Source: Patescibacteria group bacterium
Lineage (GTDB): Bacteria > Patescibacteriota > Patescibacteriia > UBA2591 > UBA6264
NCBI GenBank assembly: GCA_028713575.1
Contig: JAQTOB010000006.1
Coordinates: 22,729 to 54,728, forward strand
Reading direction: 5' to 3'
DNA length: 32,000 nt
Shown here: piece after piece, positions 11,255 to 18,928 of the stretch
Position numbering within the stretch: position 1 is the first letter of the stretch
Layout: every line of letters starts with the position of its first letter
Made by a program: the position numbers and the translations under genes
Notes under the pieces: model-generated
What the model was told of the DNA's origin: nothing
The model's database searches: none
The model's input: only the letters and a program-made list of their open reading frames with translations

Positions 11255-11260
11255 ATGCTT

Positions 11261-12790
11261 ATGGACAAACAAATTCAAGAAAAAAATTCTTCTAATAACA
11301 TTGTTTTTTTTGCCGAAACCAATTATCGCAACATCAGGCGCAAGTTTGGTGTCAAAGATAAAGATCGTCGGCAACACATGTATTTGGTGGGGAAAACCGG
11401 GGTGGGCAAGTCAACGGTATTTGAAAATATGATTTTTCAAGATATTCAGGCCGGTCGCGGATTAGCTATTGTTGATCCGCATGGCGAATTGGCGGAAAAA
11501 GTTTTAGATTTTATCCCCGCAAACAGAATCAATGATACAATTTATTTTAATCCGGCCGATGCGGAAAATCCCTTTGCCTTTAATGTTTTGGAACGGGTGG
11601 GGCCAGAACATCGGCATTTGGTCGCTTCTGGTTTGGTGGGGGTTTTTAAAAAGATTTGGGCCGATTCTTGGGGCCCGAGATTGGAATATGTTTTAAGAAA
11701 CGCAATTTTGGCTTTATTAGAATATCCGGGCAGTACTCTATTGGGGATTATGAGAATTTTAGTGGACAAGGAATTCAGAAAAAAGGTGGTAGATCGTTTG
11801 ACTGATCCAGTGGTAAAATCTTTTTGGGTTGAAGAATATCCCAAATATCCGGAAAAATTAAGAACAGAAGCAATTGCGCCGATTCAAAATAAAGTGGGAC
11901 AATTTTTATCCACTTCTTTAATCAGAAACATTGTTGGCCAGATAAAATCAAAAATTGACATCCGACAAATTATGGATGAAGGGAAAATTTTAATTATGAA
12001 TCTTTCTAAGGGAAGGGTCGGAGAAGACGCTTCCGCTTTATTGGGTGCGATGATGATTACCAAGATTCAAATGGCGGCGATGAGTCGGATTGATATTTCT
12101 GAAACAGAACGACGCGATTTTTATCTTTATGTTGATGAATTTCAAAATTTTGCTACTGATTCTTTCGCTGATATTCTTTCTGAAGCAAGAAAATACCATC
12201 TTAATTTAATAATCGCTCATCAATATATCGGACAATTAATATCAGAAAATAGTCGGGTAAAAGATGCGGTTTTTGGCAACGTCGGGACAATGATAGTTTT
12301 TCGCGTCGGCGCAGAAGATGCGGAATTTTTAGCCAAAGAATTTCAGCCTCGTTTTGACGAAACCGATTTAGTTGATTTAGATTCGCACAATATTTATGTA
12401 AAACTAATGATTGACGGTATTACTTCTGAGCCGTTTTCGGCCGTTACTTTACCGCCCTTAGTCAAACCAGAAGGCAATAGAGATAAAATTATTAGAGTTT
12501 CTCGTGAACGTTATACTGAACCCAAAAAAATAGTAGAAGAGAAAATTGTTCGTTGGAGCGGTATTGTTGAATCTAATCAAGGATTATCTCGTTTGAATGA
12601 CGTGGATAAATATGAAGCAAAATGTGATAATTGCGGAGCAATAACTTATGTCCCTTTTATTCCCGATGGCGTGCGACCAGTTTATTGTAAAAAATGTTTA
12701 AAAGGCATGCAAAAGAATATCAAAAACGAAAAAGAAAAAATAATGAAAAAGGAATCAACTTTTTTTGATCAGCATCGTCGTCATCTATGA
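11261..12790 (+). CDS. TraD/VirD4-like P-loop NTPase with a C-terminal CxxC-x17-CxxC zinc ribbon
   Basis: It has Walker A GKTGVGKST, Walker B-like FYLYVDEFQNF and AHQY. The C-terminus reads CDNC-17 residues-CKKC, and I see no hydrophobic anchor. The start could be 11255 or 11261; 11261 is preferred from the promoter geometry. Confidence 0.75.
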   Translation: MDKQIQEKNSSNNIVFFAETNYRNIRRKFGVKDKDRRQHMYLVGKTGVGKSTVFENMIFQDIQAGRGLAIVDPHGELAEKVLDFIPANRINDTIYFNPADAENPFAFNVLERVGPEHRHLVASGLVGVFKKIWADSWGPRLEYVLRNAILALLEYPGSTLLGIMRILVDKEFRKKVVDRLTDPVVKSFWVEEYPKYPEKLRTEAIAPIQNKVGQFLSTSLIRNIVGQIKSKIDIRQIMDEGKILIMNLSKGRVGEDASALLGAMMITKIQMAAMSRIDISETERRDFYLYVDEFQNFATDSFADILSEARKYHLNLIIAHQYIGQLISENSRVKDAVFGNVGTMIVFRVGAEDAEFLAKEFQPRFDETDLVDLDSHNIYVKLMIDGITSEPFSAVTLPPLVKPEGNRDKIIRVSRERYTEPKKIVEEKIVRWSGIVESNQGLSRLNDVDKYEAKCDNCGAITYVPFIPDGVRPVYCKKCLKGMQKNIKNEKEKIMKKESTFFDQHRRHL

Positions 12791-15758: not shown

Positions 15759-16262
15759 ATGGCTATTGCAAAAAAACTTATTAATTATTTGGCGCAGAAA
15801 AAAATTAATTATGAATTAATTGAGCATCGTATTGTTTTTACCGCCTGGGATTTAGTTAAAACTCTGCACTTGAAAAAACCAGAAGAAGTTGCCAAAACCC
15901 TATTAGTTAAGATGGATAAAGAACCAGTTATTGTTCTTTTGCCGGCTAATAAGAATTTAGATAAGGCAAAGTTTAAGAAAATTTTCAATGCTTGGAGAAA
16001 AAAACAGAATTTGAAAATAATTAAAGATATTGATTTTTTCAAAGAAGCTTGGATGAAGAAGAATATTAAGATAGGAAAATTAGGCGTGATTCCGCCTTTT
16101 AGCCAGTTATTGAAAATGCCGGTTTTTGTTGACAATCTCGTGCTTAAGCCGGCAAAAATTATCGTTAATTCCGGGGAATACGGGGTTTCTTTAAAAATTA
16201 AGACTAAAGATTTTGTCAAAGCGGAACAACCGGTAAAAGGAAGTTTTAGTAAGAAAAAGTAG
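15759..16262 (+). CDS. YbaK/ProX-type aminoacyl-tRNA deacylase domain protein
   Basis: The 167-aa product has a pattern consistent with the YbaK/EbsC fold (HRIVFTAWDLVKTL, TLLVKMDKEPVIVLLPANKNLD, INSGEYG). Substrate specificity cannot be called. Confidence 0.65.
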   Translation: MAIAKKLINYLAQKKINYELIEHRIVFTAWDLVKTLHLKKPEEVAKTLLVKMDKEPVIVLLPANKNLDKAKFKKIFNAWRKKQNLKIIKDIDFFKEAWMKKNIKIGKLGVIPPFSQLLKMPVFVDNLVLKPAKIIVNSGEYGVSLKIKTKDFVKAEQPVKGSFSKKK

Positions 16263-16300
16263 AAAAAATAAAACATTTTCTTTCTTGGGGCCTTTTCTTT

Positions 16301-16392
16301 TCTTGGGGTCTGACCCCATTTGAGCCTTGGGGTCTGACCCCATTTGAGCCTTGGGGTCTGACCCCATTTGAGCCTTGGGGTCTGACCCCATG
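16301..16392 (+). repeat. Four tandem 24-bp units, each carrying the palindrome GGGGTCTGACCCC
   Basis: The palindrome occurs at 16305, 16329, 16353 and 16377, an exact 24-bp period. A partial fifth copy lies at 16281-16292. Confidence 0.95.
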
Positions 16393-16746
16393 AAGAGGCC
16401 TTCTGAAACCCGCATTAATAAAGGATTATAGAGCAAAAATTCAAATTTGGTGTGATTTTAAGCAATTTTTTTATGGAATTAAACCTCAACTAAAAATATG
16501 TATACTCTTGTCCTCAAGTCCATGGGGCCTGACCCCAAATGAAATATTAAGAGCCTTGGGGTCTAGAGCCTTGGGGTCTGACCCCATGAAGAGGCCTTCT
16601 GAAACCCGCATTAATAAAGGATTATAGAGCAAAAATTCAAATTTGGTGTGATTTTAAGCAATTTTTTTATGGAATTAAACCTCAACTAAAAATATGTATA
16701 CTCTTGTCCTCAAATCCATGGGGTCAGACCCCAAATGAAATATTAA
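16370..16746 (+). repeat. Tandem duplication of a 181-bp unit (period 196 bp) with 18-bp inverted termini; MITE-like
   Basis: 16370-16550 and 16566-16746 differ by 3 substitutions. The termini are TTGGGGTCTGACCCCATG and CATGGGGTCAGACCCCAA. A 15-bp truncated unit (16551-16565) lies between the copies. Confidence 0.9.
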
Positions 16747-16765
16747 ATAAATTAACAAGTTTCGC

Positions 16766-17464
16766 GTGTATACTCTTACTTTGGAAAAATTTCAAGGACC
16801 TTTTAACCTGCTTTTACAATTGATTGAAAAGGAGAAAATGGATATTACCGAAGTTTCTTTGGCTCAGGTAACGGATGAATTTTTACATCATTTAGAAAAA
16901 GTGGAACAGGTTCAACCCGATGAATTAGCGGATTTTTTAGAAATTGCCGCTAAATTAATTTTCATTAAATCAAAGCTTTTGGTTCCCGGGACAACAGAAG
17001 AAGATGAAGAGGGTCAAGATTTAGTTGGCCAGTTAAAGATTTATCAGCAGTATATGCGGGCAACCAAAGAAATAGGGAGAATTGCTAGTCAACCGATTTA
17101 TTCTTTTGCTCGAGAAAGAATTCCCTTGGAAATTGTGCCGCATTTTTCTTTGGAAACTAAAATTACGACTCATATTTTGGAAAAATATTTTAAGAATTTA
17201 TCTCTGTTTATTTCAGAACAAATTAAATTTAACCAACAAATTATTAAAAGAAAAGTTGTTTCTTTGCAGGCGAAGATCAGGGAATTAATTGAAGTTTTAA
17301 GTCAAAAGAAAGAAATAATTTTTGATTCTTTAATTAAAGGCAAAGAAAAAGCGGAGAAAATAGCCACTTTTTTGGCAGTTCTGGAATTAGTTAAAAGAAG
17401 GCAAGCTGTAGTTAGTCAGGCAGGATTGTTTGAAAAAATTATTGTTACTAAAAATAAAGAATAA
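16766..17464 (+). CDS. scpA: Segregation and condensation protein A (kleisin)
   Basis: The N-terminus FQGPFNLLLQLIEKEKMDITEVSLAQVTDEFL is the ScpA signature. The GTG start at 16766 is tentative, with TTG 16781 as the alternative. Confidence 0.85.
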   Translation: MYTLTLEKFQGPFNLLLQLIEKEKMDITEVSLAQVTDEFLHHLEKVEQVQPDELADFLEIAAKLIFIKSKLLVPGTTEEDEEGQDLVGQLKIYQQYMRATKEIGRIASQPIYSFARERIPLEIVPHFSLETKITTHILEKYFKNLSLFISEQIKFNQQIIKRKVVSLQAKIRELIEVLSQKKEIIFDSLIKGKEKAEKIATFLAVLELVKRRQAVVSQAGLFEKIIVTKNKE

Positions 17465-17479
17465 TAAAATTATAGAATT

Positions 17480-18070
17480 ATGGAAATAAAAAAAATAAAA
17501 TCAATTATAGAAAGCATTCTTTTTATAATCAACCGGCCTTTGAATAAAAAGGAGCTGGCTAAAATTACCGAACAAAAATTGGAAAGCGTAGAACAGGCCT
17601 TAAAAGAATTGACCGAGGAACATAATTCAGCGGAGAGGGGGATAAGGATTATCCAGAACGGTCAGGATTTCCAAATGGTTACCAGTCCGGAAAATAGCCA
17701 GATTATTCAGAATTTTTTAAAACAGGAAATCAATCAGGAATTAACCCCGGCTTCCTTGGAAACCCTGGCGATTATCGCTTATCGCGGACCCATTAGAAAG
17801 GAAGAACTAGAACAAATTCGCGGGGTTAATTGCAGTATTATTTTACGCAATCTTTTGATCAAGGGTTTGATTGTAGAAGAACCTCTCTCTTCCCGCCTTA
17901 TCGGCGGACAAGCGGCGGATGAAGACAATGAAGATAAAGAAAGTCAGGTTTATAGCGTCAGTTTGGATTTTATCCGGCATTTAGGCATTAATGACTTAAA
18001 AGAACTGCCCGATTATAATAAACTTAATAAAGATGTTTCTTTATTATCTTTAGCGGAACAAGAAGAGTAA
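17480..18070 (+). CDS. scpB: Segregation and condensation protein B
   Basis: IIESILFI, LETLAIIAYRGPIRKEELEQIRGVN and a tandem winged-helix pattern are present. The gene contains a GC-rich insert at 17882-17920. Confidence 0.85.
   Translation: MEIKKIKSIIESILFIINRPLNKKELAKITEQKLESVEQALKELTEEHNSAERGIRIIQNGQDFQMVTSPENSQIIQNFLKQEINQELTPASLETLAIIAYRGPIRKEELEQIRGVNCSIILRNLLIKGLIVEEPLSSRLIGGQAADEDNEDKESQVYSVSLDFIRHLGINDLKELPDYNKLNKDVSLLSLAEQEE
17893..17913 (+). repeat. GC-rich hairpin element CCGCC-TTATC-GGCGGACAAGC inside scpB
   Basis: It matches 19603-19623 in murE at 19/21 and is translated here as SRLIGGQA. Confidence 0.8.
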
Positions 18071-18074
18071 TTAA

Positions 18075-18150
18075 CCAAATACATAGGCCAAATACACAGG
18101 GGCCAAATACACAGGTTGAACCTGTGTAGAGTGTACCTGTGTAGAGTGTA
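18075..18150 (+). repeat. 3x CCAAATACA(C/T)AGG followed by 2x CCTGTGTAGAGTGTA (mutually inverted)
   Basis: Direct copies lie at 18075, 18088 and 18103, and inverted partners at 18121 and 18136. The central hairpin is TACACAGG-TTGAA-CCTGTGTA (18108-18128). Confidence 0.9.
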
Positions 18151-18259: not shown

Positions 18260-18454
18260 TTGGTGTGGGGGTGAAATTCCTCCTTGGGTACTTTTATTTT
18301 CTTAAGAATTATTTAATGGCGGAAAAAAGACGGTCAACGGAAATATACAGAAAATTGTTCACCAGGGATTTTTCTTTGGCCAATATTGAGATTTGGTATC
18401 GGGCGGAATAGTAAAGATAATTACAGAACCTCAAGACATAAAATATCTACGTAT

Positions 18455-18591
18455 CTACGAGGCGAGAACCTCGTAGGTCTCATAGGTTTCGACCTCGTCT
18501 ACGAGGCGTAGAATATCTACGAGGCGAGACCTCGTAGGCTTTCTGAAATATCTACGAGGCGTAGAATATCTACGAGGCGAGACCTCGTAGG
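18455..18591 (+). repeat. Cluster of CTACGAGG-CGAGA-CCTCGTAG hairpins, including a 41-nt unit repeated with 53-bp period
   Basis: Hairpins lie at 18455-18476, 18517-18537 and 18570-18590. The unit TCTACGAGGCGTAGAATATCTACGAGGCGAGACCTCGTAGG occurs at 18498-18538 and 18551-18591. Confidence 0.9.
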
Positions 18592-18662
18592 TTTCCTTGC
18601 CCCTTTATTCTAATTTAGTGATAAAAATTTTTTTAAAATCCCGTAGAGAAATTTTGGAAATT

Positions 18663-18928
18663 ATGTTTTTCTATAATTATGTCATCCAAAGTTCAAAAAA
18701 TAAAAGTCTCTATGTGGCTACGCCATAGATTTAAAAGAGAGACTAGAAAAACATAATAAAGGTTTAGTAAAGTCCACCGAGCCGTATAGACCTTGGAAAG
18801 TGATATATTATGAAGCCTATTTAAATAAAGAAGATGCAAAACGCAGAGAGTGTTATTCAAAGACCGCCCAAGGTCAAAGATTATTAAAAAGGCGTCTTAA
18901 AGATTATTTTTATGATGATAATAAATAA
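18663..18928 (+). pseudogene. GIY-YIG nuclease family gene (YhbQ/UPF0213-like) interrupted by a 1-nt frameshift
   Basis: The frame from 18663 gives MFFYNYVIQSSKNKSLYV, then a stop at 18726-18728. The frame from 18716 gives GYAIDLKERLEKHNKGLVKSTEPYRPWKVIYYEAYLNKEDAKRRECYSKTAQGQRLLKRRLKDYF, ending in TAA at 18926-18928. Joined, they form a complete ~88-aa GIY-YIG domain. Confidence 0.75.

Follow-up and report, generated by a model that had tools for sequence, protein, structure and literature searches.

In the window (the whole 32-kb stretch of DNA analysed here), a YbaK-type gene is followed by 503 bp of repeat-bearing intergenic sequence and then by the condensin accessory genes scpA and scpB. 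The features of this region are as follows, where REP denotes the putative REP hairpin discussed below.

15759..16262, + strand: YbaK-type tRNA_edit gene (aminoacyl-tRNA editing; Pfam tRNA_edit, E 6.5e-13), the last gene ahead of the repeats
16276..16311, + strand: degenerate stutter of half-REPs repeating every 18 nt (…CTTGGGGCCT / …CTTGGGGTCT), running into the first full REP (repeat search)
16302..16391, + strand: tandem array of four REPs, unit GAGCCTTGGGGTCTGACCCCATTT, 24-bp period (TRF, exact matches)
16305-16317, 16329-16341, 16353-16365 and 16377-16389, + strand: hairpins of the 24-bp array (exact matches)
16390..16497, + strand: copy 1 of the 'leader' module, recognised by its similarity to the sequence between REP and RAYT start elsewhere in the same genome
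16498..16509, + strand: duplicate of the scpA 5' end, ATGTATACTCTT, in unit copy 1 (11/12 against 16766-16777)
16524..16536, - strand: degenerate inverted REP GGGGCCTGACCCC, which closes unit copy 1 and has the form present in all other strains
16551..16565, + strand: duplication junction, a half-REP unit GAGCCTTGGGGTCTA cut at the palindrome centre and absent from all other assemblies examined
16566..16746, + strand: copy 2 of the 181-bp unit (repeat search, 98% against copy 1), in this strain/assembly only; it consists of a REP (16573-16585), the leader, an scpA-start duplicate (16694-16705) and a perfect inverted REP (16720-16732)
16747..16765, + strand: ancestral stretch directly 5' of scpA (…TAAATTAACAAGTTTCGC), which aligns with relatives L275 and L267
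16766..17464, + strand: scpA (Pfam SMC_ScpA, E 4.9e-19)
17480..18070, + strand: scpB (Pfam SMC_ScpB, E 2.3e-41)

The basic element of the spacer is a 13-bp palindrome, GGGGTCTGACCCC, which occurs at 16305, 16329, 16353, 16377 and 16573 and, as the variants GGGGCCTGACCCC and GGGGTCAGACCCC, at 16524 and 16720. It forms a hairpin of 13 nt with a 6-bp stem (-5.3 kcal/mol when folded as ssDNA). When up to two mismatches were allowed, 14 strand-matches were obtained against 0.15 expected from shuffling; all copies of the window are intergenic, and none lies outside this spacer in the 32 kb. The five exact and two variant positions, the 24-bp phase of four of them and their restriction to this place had been reported in an earlier note on this DNA and were confirmed. 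Using TRF, the 24-bp array was found at 16302-16391 (3.8 copies, 100% identity), together with a 196-bp period over 16370-16746. The two 181-bp copies differ by exactly the three substitutions previously described (16518/16714, 16528/16724 and 16530/16726) and are spaced by GAGCCTTGGGGTCTA at 16551-16565, and the sequence joining the two units contains …ATATTAAGAGCCTTGGGGTCTAGAGCC…. Inverted termini of 18 bp had been ascribed to each unit; this is correct for copy 2, where 18/18 positions match (16571-16588 / 16717-16734), but the right end of copy 1 is degenerate. The inverted REPs of a unit are separated by 128 nt, and their arms are complementary over no more than 18 nt. Three copies of the scpA 5' end are indeed present, with the 12-mer ATGTATACTCTT at 16498 and 16694 matching GTGTATACTCTT at 16766 at 11/12. 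Finally, the statement that no sense ORF exceeds 14 codons is valid for ATG starts only, because two 39-codon sense ORFs with TTG starts were found (16508-16627 and 16704-16823).

Hairpin and leader beside RAYT genes

Two intact IS200-like Y1 (HUH) transposases of the RAYT type (REP-associated tyrosine transposase), P0254 and P0247, are encoded in the genome as covered by the Patescibacteria MAG GCA_028711035.1 and by JGI contigs. The first is found on GCA_028711035.1 and on JGI 3300037067 (L293/L294), and the second on a 517-kb contig (L288) which also bears the ybaK-scpA locus. The left flank of P0254 consists of ATGGGGTCTGACCCCATG and a leader about 80% identical to the core of the window unit; GGGGTCTGACCCC lies upstream at 2774 and 2893, and inverted AGGGTCAGACCCC is repeated three times downstream in a 33-bp array. 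Copy 1 of the window leader shows 77/94 identity to both leader copies 5' of P0254, and the window leader is 79% identical over 97 nt to L126:157-253, upstream of a RAYT gene. P0247 has the compensatory hairpin GGGGACTGTCCCC on its upstream side only. Taken together, the flanks of the two genes contain REP arrays, half-REP stutters and a 119-bp REP+leader tandem duplication, which is present in two independent assemblies. Half-hairpin stutters like that at 16276..16311 precede full REPs beside RAYT genes in L126, L288, L293 and L294. On L126, a 200-aa Y1_Tnp gene (Pfam E 2.6e-17) is placed between GGGGTCTGACCCC and GGGGTCAGACCCC, and two other Patescibacteria RAYT loci (P0145 and P0133) have similar flanks. 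Inverted hairpins bracket the RAYT at six Patescibacteria loci, namely L126, P0145 (contexts L276 and L280), P0133 and L293/L294.

The assignment of these genes to the RAYT family was also assessed from their sequences. Across the RAYT alignment, no change is seen in the HUH histidines or in the catalytic Tyr. The best NCBIfam match of the L126 RAYT is REP_Tyr_transpos (NF047646) at 70.4 bits, where the cut-off is 80; on the same model, L225 scored 75.8 bits (below the cut-off) and L041 98.2 bits (above it). The IS200 scores of the tested RAYTs were 23-31 bits, well under their REP_Tyr_transpos scores, and family members are annotated by JGI as 'REP element-mobilizing transposase RayT'. A sequence search of the RAYT against PDB returned no relative at E <0.01.

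In about 45 kb of accessible sequence of this genome, the palindrome is found at no fewer than four loci (ybaK-scpA, L293:320, the L293 RAYT flanks and L288:1321-1559), and its neighbours at the other loci are RAYT, Wzy_C, TPR and HNH genes. The copies at these different loci share about 80% identity, which gives no sign of recent transposition. Outside this genome, the palindrome was found in at least 10 phyla, and in a 17-mer metagenome scan mostly unrelated taxa were represented among the matches listed. In loci selected by the palindrome, crude ORF calling placed 153/233 copies in intergenic sequence, and a RAYT-like ORF lies within 100 nt of the palindrome in 8 of 240 loci fetched solely for containing it, including Marinobacter, Burkholderiales-order and Comamonadaceae contigs. 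The RAYTs of Marinobacter, Burkholderiales and other Patescibacteria are flanked by the same 13-mer, and tight REP doublets with the same core and 14-40 nt spacers were observed in Marinobacter, Halomonas and soil contigs. In a matched-control test in viral contigs, the real core was found in 10 stretches and the control palindromes in 0, 4 and 0. The core is enriched compared with control palindromes, yet not unique, and chance or a generic hairpin was not retained as the source of its recurrence across phyla.

Several side results concern the same sequence. The control palindrome that gave four viral contigs, GGGGACWGTCCCC, itself represents the second REP family in this genome. A link to an HDV-like ribozyme was seen in a single gut contig (L105), and the window has no counterpart of it. 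The palindrome also resembles the tip of the Tn3 terminal repeat (GGGGTCTGAC…); this likeness was put down to coincidence, given arms of just 6 nt and adjacent genes that are RAYTs, not DDE transposases. In the full text of the literature, the 13-mer was found in no paper and the 11-mer core only in primers and unrelated sequences; our search also found no paper tying RAYTs to Patescibacteria.

Variation of the spacer among relatives and strains

The gene order LPG_synthase-alaS-ybaK-scpA-scpB is kept in relatives, and the content of the spacer varies. Of the two nearest relatives examined, the one at 75% ScpA identity has a 111-bp spacer with one GGGGTCTGACCCC and the leader, and the one at 79% has a 128-bp spacer with GGGGACTGTCCCC and the leader; in the latter, a compensatory stem change has altered both half-sites. 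The next two, at 72% and 66% ScpA identity, have spacers of 5 bp and 15 bp, from which hairpin and leader are absent. Relatives L275 and L267-269 carry the leader between ybaK and scpA. In the relatives, the hairpin starts a few nt past the ybaK stop codon, and the leader directly abuts the scpA ATG.

A search for the unit in sister genomes, as proposed in the earlier note, gave one 181-bp unit in each of five other same-species assemblies as well as hairpin plus leader in two relatives. The ybaK-scpA spacer is 503 bp here versus 307, 283, 282, 282 and 259 bp in these five assemblies, which contain, respectively, 4, 3, 2 plus irregular, 2 plus irregular and 2 of the 24-bp hairpin units. The 196-bp duplication and the perfect right terminus are confined to this assembly/strain, and a single assembly stands behind the duplication.

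For this part of the locus, an assembly artefact has to be considered, in which two coexisting single-unit strain alleles (the GGGGCCTGACCCC type and the GGGGTCAGACCCC type) were concatenated through their repeats while the remaining cluster is real. Such an event would fit the presence of two units in this assembly alone. It would also fit the distribution of differences, as copy 1 is exactly the GCA_028711035.1 allele, with 0 differences in 2981 aligned nt upstream, and copy 2 carries 3 differences followed by 3 more downstream. Furthermore, short-read contigs of the same samples break at both sides of the region: three stop just past ybaK or within the first REPs, and two further contigs start within the last unit or just 5' of scpA. 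However, the junction (ATATTAA/GAGCCTTGGGGTCTA/GAGCC) holds sequence that is absent from every single-unit allele and that therefore could not be created by collapsing or joining existing k-mers. Contigs L010, L011 and L004 (SRR2231550x samples) match the window at 100% identity on either side, and the last of these (SRR22315509) begins at 16684, with the first copy-specific SNP following exactly 30 nt later. A comparable tandem duplication, the 119-bp REP+leader repeat 5' of P0254, is also supported by its two independent assemblies. We consider an artefact unlikely, with a modest chance left to it.

Interpretation of the repeat cluster

Since RAYTs of the same genome are accompanied by the same hairpin and leader, and since the number of copies varies between strains, the locus can be assigned to a known kind of element, a non-autonomous repeat cluster of REP/RAYT type, with no condensin-specific signal. 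More specifically, the palindrome is very probably a REP (repetitive extragenic palindrome), one of the short repeats that go with a domesticated RAYT transposase, and the spacer would hold a cluster of such REPs together with the ~95-nt leader that accompanies the RAYT. The REP flanks in the window are CCTT…ATTT and CCTT…ATGA, and those of the inverted REPs are CATG…AAAT; the canonical GTAG or CGTC tag (PMC3733652) is absent from them, and no tag is conserved across copies. Among the options raised in the earlier note, a MITE-like element comes nearest, as the repeats are non-autonomous and the cognate transposase is encoded elsewhere in the genome, but a classical MITE with TIR and TSD was rejected: the 18-bp TIR is found in copy 2 only, the copies elsewhere have diverged as given above, and the unit has no target-site duplication. 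A 12-bp direct repeat brackets the right-hand 60 bp, not the whole unit.

The history of the spacer may be reconstructed as follows. One REP+leader module would have been gained between ybaK and scpA in an ancestor, and the REP could then have been amplified to the 24-bp array by hairpin-promoted slippage, by template switching or by RAYT-mediated single-strand cleavage and rejoining. The same process may have added the inverted REP plus the 12-nt scpA-start copy and, in this strain, duplicated the whole 196-bp block. The half-REPs, which are cut exactly at the palindrome centre, would be the marks of these events. With respect to gene expression, the hairpins may act on the alaS-ybaK transcript by ending or stabilising it, and the leader, which lies 5' of RAYT and scpA start codons, may supply the promoter and 5' UTR of scpAB. 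Because consensus scans of 16263-16765 called neither a terminator nor a sigma-70 promoter, both suggestions are drawn from position.

The hairpins might instead be ordinary terminator or mRNA-stabilising stem-loops that were amplified by replication slippage and have no functional link to the RAYTs, the resemblance to RAYT flanks being incidental. Their start just after the ybaK stop codon in relatives would agree with such a role, as would the A-rich sequence 5' and the T-rich sequence 3' of the 13-mer in 120 genome loci. In addition, the compensatory stem change suggests selection on structure and not on sequence, and other GC-rich palindromes also occur in pairs, such as the control GGGGACWGTCCCC in its 4 viral contigs. 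In contrast, the hairpin travels with a ~95-nt leader adjoining RAYT starts in this genome and in other Patescibacteria, inverted hairpins bracket RAYTs at six separate loci, and each of the two RAYT paralogues has its own hairpin variant. An intrinsic terminator was also rejected on structural grounds: there is no U-tract, and the scan made no call in the spacer because only AUUU follows each stem. Overall, stem-loops of this ordinary type appear quite improbable as the source of the cluster, and the REP/RAYT assignment is preferred.

The earlier note had also offered an iteron or centromere-like array for SMC-ScpAB, and phased palindromes could likewise be parS-like sites or operators through which a protein affects scpAB or chromosome segregation. 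In favour of this are the perfect, evenly spaced palindromes and their position beside condensin accessory genes. However, the palindrome is not specific to scpAB, as it is also present at unrelated loci of this genome and in many phyla; near-identical strains have 2-4 sites, relatives with a 5-15 bp ybaK-scpA gap have none, both half-sites are changed in a close relative, and the 24-bp spacing corresponds to a non-integral number of helical turns. With site number and sequence varying at the locus itself, an iteron/parS-type array was rejected and is very improbable. Equally hard to sustain is the proposal of a small RNA transcribed from each 181-bp unit by means of a TATACT box, for which the conserved ~95-nt sequence between two hairpins and the duplication of the unit would speak: the 'box' is the duplicated scpA start codon region, the same sequence lies directly 5' of protein start codons elsewhere, and no Rfam family matched at gathering or at E <0.3 (gathering mode over the whole window gave tRNA-Arg only, and E-value mode over 16150-16850 gave sub-threshold miRNA/snoRNA noise). 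When 10 diverged copies were analysed by RNAalifold, the sole conserved structure was the 6-bp REP hairpin, with a U-A to A-U compensatory change; the leader has no conserved RNA structure, and with only this single hairpin conserved a structured small RNA was rejected.

A broader proposal can be made tentatively. The REP core GGGGTCWGACCCC and a related RAYT clade appear common to Patescibacteria and at least 10 other phyla, the hairpins of the two paralogues in one ultrasmall genome differ by one compensatory pair (T-A vs A-T), and half-REPs cut exactly at the hairpin centre lie repeatedly beside full REPs. Together these could reflect enzyme specificity and ongoing RAYT action, which we regard as conceivable and rather doubtful.

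The REP/RAYT assignment has several consequences. First, it removes a tempting link between a palindrome array and condensin biology, as the array consists of transposase-associated repeats that happen to part ybaK from scpAB; from its position, the cluster may nevertheless have rewired scpAB transcription. Second, Patescibacteria are usually described as streamlined and repeat-poor, and here REP/RAYT elements with strain-level copy-number variation are documented in such a genome. Third, the two co-resident RAYT/hairpin pairs, which are one compensatory bp apart, would provide a compact test system for hairpin recognition. On the practical side, the array can be used as a hypervariable marker for strain typing, and it predictably breaks contigs when these organisms are assembled from short reads. 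If the broader proposal is true, with both enzyme specificity and ongoing RAYT action being real, the pairing of RAYTs and hairpins would represent a natural 'recognition code', and the half-REPs would be the footprint of hairpin breakage by the enzyme or a replication fork. REP/RAYT systems would then also survive and remain active in the streamlined genomes of symbionts and might cross phyla, at odds with a picture of REP/RAYT as mostly vertical and lineage-specific.

Comparison with known repeat systems

REP/REPIN sequences and their RAYTs have been described in E. coli, Pseudomonas and Stenotrophomonas (PMC3116915, PMC3337134, PMC5581495, PMC3479197). Compared with these systems, the elements reported here share short GC-rich extragenic hairpins (found alone, in inverted pairs or clustered), a low-copy IS200-like Y1/HUH gene between inverted hairpins, paralogues in one genome with different cognate hairpins, and a strain-dependent copy number. 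In contrast, the described REP super-families carry a GTAG or CGTC tag (PMC3733652), and here there is neither, the stem is just 6 bp, and the hairpin is coupled to a conserved ~95-nt leader. The inverted pair of the window, with its 128-nt separation, forms no tight doublet, and direct tandem arrays with a 24-, 33- or 29-bp period are found instead. The host also differs, being a member of the Patescibacteria whose largest contig in this analysis is 517 kb. Described REP systems occupy tens to hundreds of dispersed sites; at least four loci lie in the ~45 kb read here, and abundance over the whole genome appears low.

The cluster can also be compared with other repeats of bacterial genomes. 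Like enterobacterial BIMEs, it comprises several REPs with short linkers in one intergenic region, is strain-variable and lies between co-oriented genes; in BIMEs, however, successive REPs alternate in orientation (Y/Z types) and IHF or gyrase is bound, whereas the array here is head-to-tail and has no known linker motif for a host protein. With the MITEs and palindrome-associated elements derived from IS200/IS605, it shares a small non-coding unit with inverted ends and a transposase encoded elsewhere. It differs from them in the missing target-site duplication of the unit, in the ~80% identity of copies at other loci and in the stable retention of the unit at the orthologous site in related species.

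A last likeness concerns RAYT genes that are bounded by long terminal inverted repeats in place of simple REPs, with moderately abundant TIR-repeat families (PMC3733652). By eye, the leader of P0254 seems similar to the trailer of this gene read as the reverse complement; in that case, the hairpin and about 60 nt would make up a long inverted terminal repeat on either side of P0254. Copies of the left end are present elsewhere in the genome. Unlike in those long-TIR systems, the tip of the proposed repeat is a REP-like hairpin, which amplifies alone as well.

Repeat cluster between ybaK and scpA

The cluster lies between genes for a YbaK-type editing protein and for scpA and scpB, in a wider neighbourhood of alaS, a lysyl-PG-synthase-like (LPG-synthase) gene, rpoB and rpoC, with every gene on the + strand and a GC of about 34% in the gene context of the window. 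When the repeats were searched for again by TRF and matching, the anatomy described in the earlier note was recovered.

15759-16262, + strand: ybaK
16302-16391: 24-bp array, 3.8 copies, 100% identity (TRF)
16305, 16329, 16353, 16377, 16573: palindrome GGGGTCTGACCCC; variants at 16524 and 16720
16370-16550 and 16566-16746: 181-bp unit, copies differing at 16518/16714, 16528/16724 and 16530/16726; 196-bp period at 16370-16746 (TRF)
16498 and 16694: ATGTATACTCTT, matching the scpA start (16766) at 11/12
16551-16565: spacer between the 181-bp copies, GAGCCTTGGGGTCTA
16766-17464, + strand: scpA
17480-18070, + strand: scpB

The palindrome occurs nowhere else in the 32 kb, as had been noted, and 14 strand-matches, all within the cluster, were counted at up to two mismatches against 0.15 expected from shuffles. 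Two details were revised: the inverted termini match at 18/18 in copy 2 of the unit and not in copy 1, and the sense strand, previously credited with no ORF above 14 codons, holds two 39-codon ORFs once TTG starts are allowed.

Several assemblies of the same organism were returned by exact-protein look-up with ScpA and the YbaK-like protein.

Table. The ybaK-scpA spacer in assemblies of one species (spacer length; 24-bp units; 181-bp units)
Window: 503 bp; 4; 2
GCA_028711035.1: 307 bp; 4; 1
Contig L008: 283 bp; 3; 1
Contigs L007 (517-kb JGI contig) and L002: 282 bp; 2 + irregular GGGGTCTGGGGTCTGACCCC; 1
Contig L003: 259 bp; 2; 1

Since the unit counts differ between these assemblies, the 24-bp array is a variable-number repeat. 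Three short-read contigs (L009-L011) stop shortly past ybaK or within the first REPs (short extragenic hairpin repeats), and two others (L004, L005) start within the last unit or shortly before scpA. The 196-bp duplication is private to the window's strain or assembly, and for this duplication only, an assembly artefact is possible. SRR2231550x contigs match the window at 100% identity to either side of the region, and L004 begins at 16684, exactly 30 nt ahead of the first copy-specific SNP, as expected of a k=31 graph (the k value we infer) if the sample holds both alleles. Against an artefact, the junction sequence is absent from every single-unit allele, which argues for a genuine duplication, known from one assembly.

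The order LPG-synthase, alaS, ybaK, scpA, scpB is kept in relatives whose ScpA is 79, 75, 72 and 66% identical. At 79%, the 128-bp spacer carries GGGGACTGTCCCC, with one stem pair altered on both its sides, and the same conserved sequence up to the scpA ATG; at 75%, the 111-bp spacer has one GGGGTCTGACCCC, beginning 7 nt past the stop codon, and a stretch of about 60-70 nt with homology to the unit core in the window. The spacers at 72% (5 bp) and 66% (15 bp) are without the hairpin. Judging from these spacers, the simplest history would be that the three closest lineages inherited hairpin and core from one gain in their ancestor, with later expansion in the window's species.

Other features of the window were also observed. 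A second palindromic family at 18440-18597, CTACGAGG-CGAGA(A)-CCTCGTAG with an 8-bp stem, ends in CTAC/GTAG as canonical GTAG-tagged REPs do; it has three copies (18455, 18517, 18570) with half copies (TCTACGAGGCGTAGAATA) interleaved, and two or three copies in other strains. Directly upstream of a Mur ligase gene, a small GIY-YIG-nuclease-like frame (~18664-18912; …GYAIDLKERLEKHNKG…PWKVIYYEAY…) has an apparent frameshift near 18712. A 67-aa product that matches GIY-YIG weakly is called at this site in GCA_028711035.1, where about 230 additional nt, estimated from alignment coordinates, are also apparent directly past 18741. The reading frame beside the LPG-synthase-like gene (11255-12790) encodes a TrwB/TraG-like type IV coupling-protein ATPase carrying a treble-clef zinc finger at its C-terminus, and it is conserved in related loci.

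Transposase genes flanked by such hairpins

REP/RAYT systems are defined by hairpins alongside a gene for a REP-associated tyrosine transposase (RAYT) (PMC3116915, PMC3337134, PMC5581495). The key locus is L126, a 1.4-kb contig of 33% GC, in which a 200-aa Y1_Tnp (IS200-like) gene has GGGGTCTGACCCC 105 nt upstream and GGGGTCAGACCCC 80 nt downstream, the latter followed by five 18-bp half-site repeats. The 97-nt stretch from its left hairpin to the start codon is 79% identical to window 16399-16495. The top NCBIfam match of the protein is REP-associated tyrosine transposase, and its family is large in Patescibacteria, with members named 'REP element-mobilizing transposase RayT' by JGI and with the catalytic tyrosine and HUH histidines invariant in the alignment.

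By cluster and contig look-up, the window's organism has two family members. First, P0254 (GCA_028711035.1 contig JAQTSZ010000013.1; also a JGI contig, sample 3300037067) has upstream a half-hairpin stutter, ATATAATGGGGTCTA, with a single occurrence in one assembly and two in the other, and then a 119-bp-period tandem duplication of ATGGGGTCTGACCCCATG plus leader, the leader being identical to the window core at 77/94 positions; downstream are a trailer resembling, by eye, the leader's reverse complement and three copies of AGGGTCAGACCCC spaced 33 bp. Second, P0247 lies about 93 kb from the ybaK-scpA locus on the same 517-kb contig, with the compensatory hairpin GGGGACTGTCCCC about 85 nt before its start codon. 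A nearby spacer (L288:1290-1650) holds a cluster of this second REP family, GGGGACTGTCCCC; it includes a 50-bp tandem duplication as well as a truncated copy of the P0247 5' end, after which a further REP lies. At L288:1559, a degenerate REP-A plus leader was observed, a relic comparable to the unit in the window.

In the Patescibacteria loci of P0145 and P0133, the RAYT is likewise bracketed by GGGGTCAGACCCC and GGGGTCTGACCCC, 69-93 nt before the start codon and about 80 nt past the stop, and one of these loci is directly downstream of LPG-synthase-alaS. In other Patescibacteria (L282:2028-2040, L276:2419-2431), a REP overlaps the final codons of the upstream gene, either alaS or a TPR protein gene with the ending …GSDPKD*, and REP insertion therefore reshapes protein C-termini.

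Hairpin structure, possible functions and distribution

The palindrome folds as a hairpin, which is the sole structure conserved over ten diverged copies and shows compensatory change. It is amplified head-to-tail, with periods of 24 and 33 bp in this genome and 29 bp in contig L041, and truncated units stop at its centre (GGGGTCT-A, GGGGACT-A, T-AGACCCC). The hairpin may promote slippage or template switching, or RAYT may cut and rejoin it on single-stranded DNA; such events would account for the array, for the inverted copy and the 12-nt duplicate of the scpA start that goes with it, and for the duplicated 196-bp block. Directly past the scpB stop (18075-18150), the palindrome ACACAGGTT-G-AACCTGTGT is accompanied by stuttered copies of its arms, of the left one upstream (CCAAATACACAGGGG x2.9) and of the right one downstream (ACCTGTGTAGAGTGT x2.1). 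Half-palindromes stutter in the same way at the REP sites, and this suggests a signature of hairpin processing that is general to the genome.

Effects on the neighbouring genes are more tentative: the alaS-ybaK transcript may be ended or stabilised by the hairpins, and the scpAB promoter and 5' UTR may be provided by the leader, since in every case the latter adjoins a start codon, whether that of a RAYT gene, that of scpA (in relatives) or the scpA-start remnant (in the window). Simple consensus scans called neither a terminator nor a promoter in the spacer. A pure terminator hairpin, independent of RAYT, is hard to reconcile with a leader shared with RAYT loci and with each RAYT paralogue having its own hairpin. 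The iteron or centromere-like array considered earlier, binding condensin or ParB, is contradicted by hairpins at unrelated loci and in other phyla, by their variable number and absence from some relatives, and by the altered stem. The results for Rfam and for the alignment fold contradict small-RNA genes, as does the identity of their proposed TATACT box with the scpA start.

Contigs among the matches listed in a metagenome scan with TTGGGGTCTGACCCCAT had GC contents of 27 to 72%; a second 13-mer copy lay within about 50 nt in about half of them, some had up to 9 copies in 10-14 kb, and the copies were mostly intergenic. Pairs among the genome matches listed were found in Halomonas, Marinobacter, Massilia, Dorea, Bacillus and others, and also in Acidobacteriota, Gaiellales, Planctomycetota and Omnitrophota. 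Apart from 5' A-richness and 3' T-richness, no conserved flanks of the 13-mer were seen. In 8 of 240 loci chosen solely for containing the palindrome, including Marinobacter, Burkholderiales and Comamonadaceae contigs, a RAYT-like ORF lay within 100 nt of it. With matched controls, 10 stretches were obtained for the 13-mer core against 0, 4 and 0 for control palindromes, one of which is itself the second REP family of the window's genome. It is notable that one 13-mer core recurs with RAYTs over many phyla; this recurrence is enriched, not unique.

Two further arrangements were observed. A Halomonas sp. contig has dense TGGGGTCAGACCCCA / TGGGGTCTGACCCCA hairpin arrays in two intergenic regions that are 2 kb apart, with 7 copies at L190:2071-2284 and 6 at L190:4228-4367 by a count on the printed sequence. 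After some of these hairpins comes CCGGCTACCCC; it includes CTAC, which is GTAG in reverse complement. On a human-gut metagenome contig (L105:2330-6090), the palindrome GGGGTCWGACCCC lies about 65 nt 5' of each of three HDV-like ribozyme matches (F. prausnitzii family, 71-81 bits), a repeated module with no relation to the window.

Comparison with described REP/RAYT systems

The locus works like a REP/RAYT system: the hairpin, its extragenic location and same-genome RAYT genes with a hairpin alongside were all found, one RAYT being bracketed in inverted orientation and the other having a variant hairpin upstream only. Our literature search found no papers linking RAYTs with Patescibacteria. 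Compared with the described systems, the present one lacks the GTAG or CGTC tag (PMC3733652), its REP is coupled to a long leader, its arrays are direct tandem repeats, its inverted pair is widely spaced, and its host belongs to the Patescibacteria.
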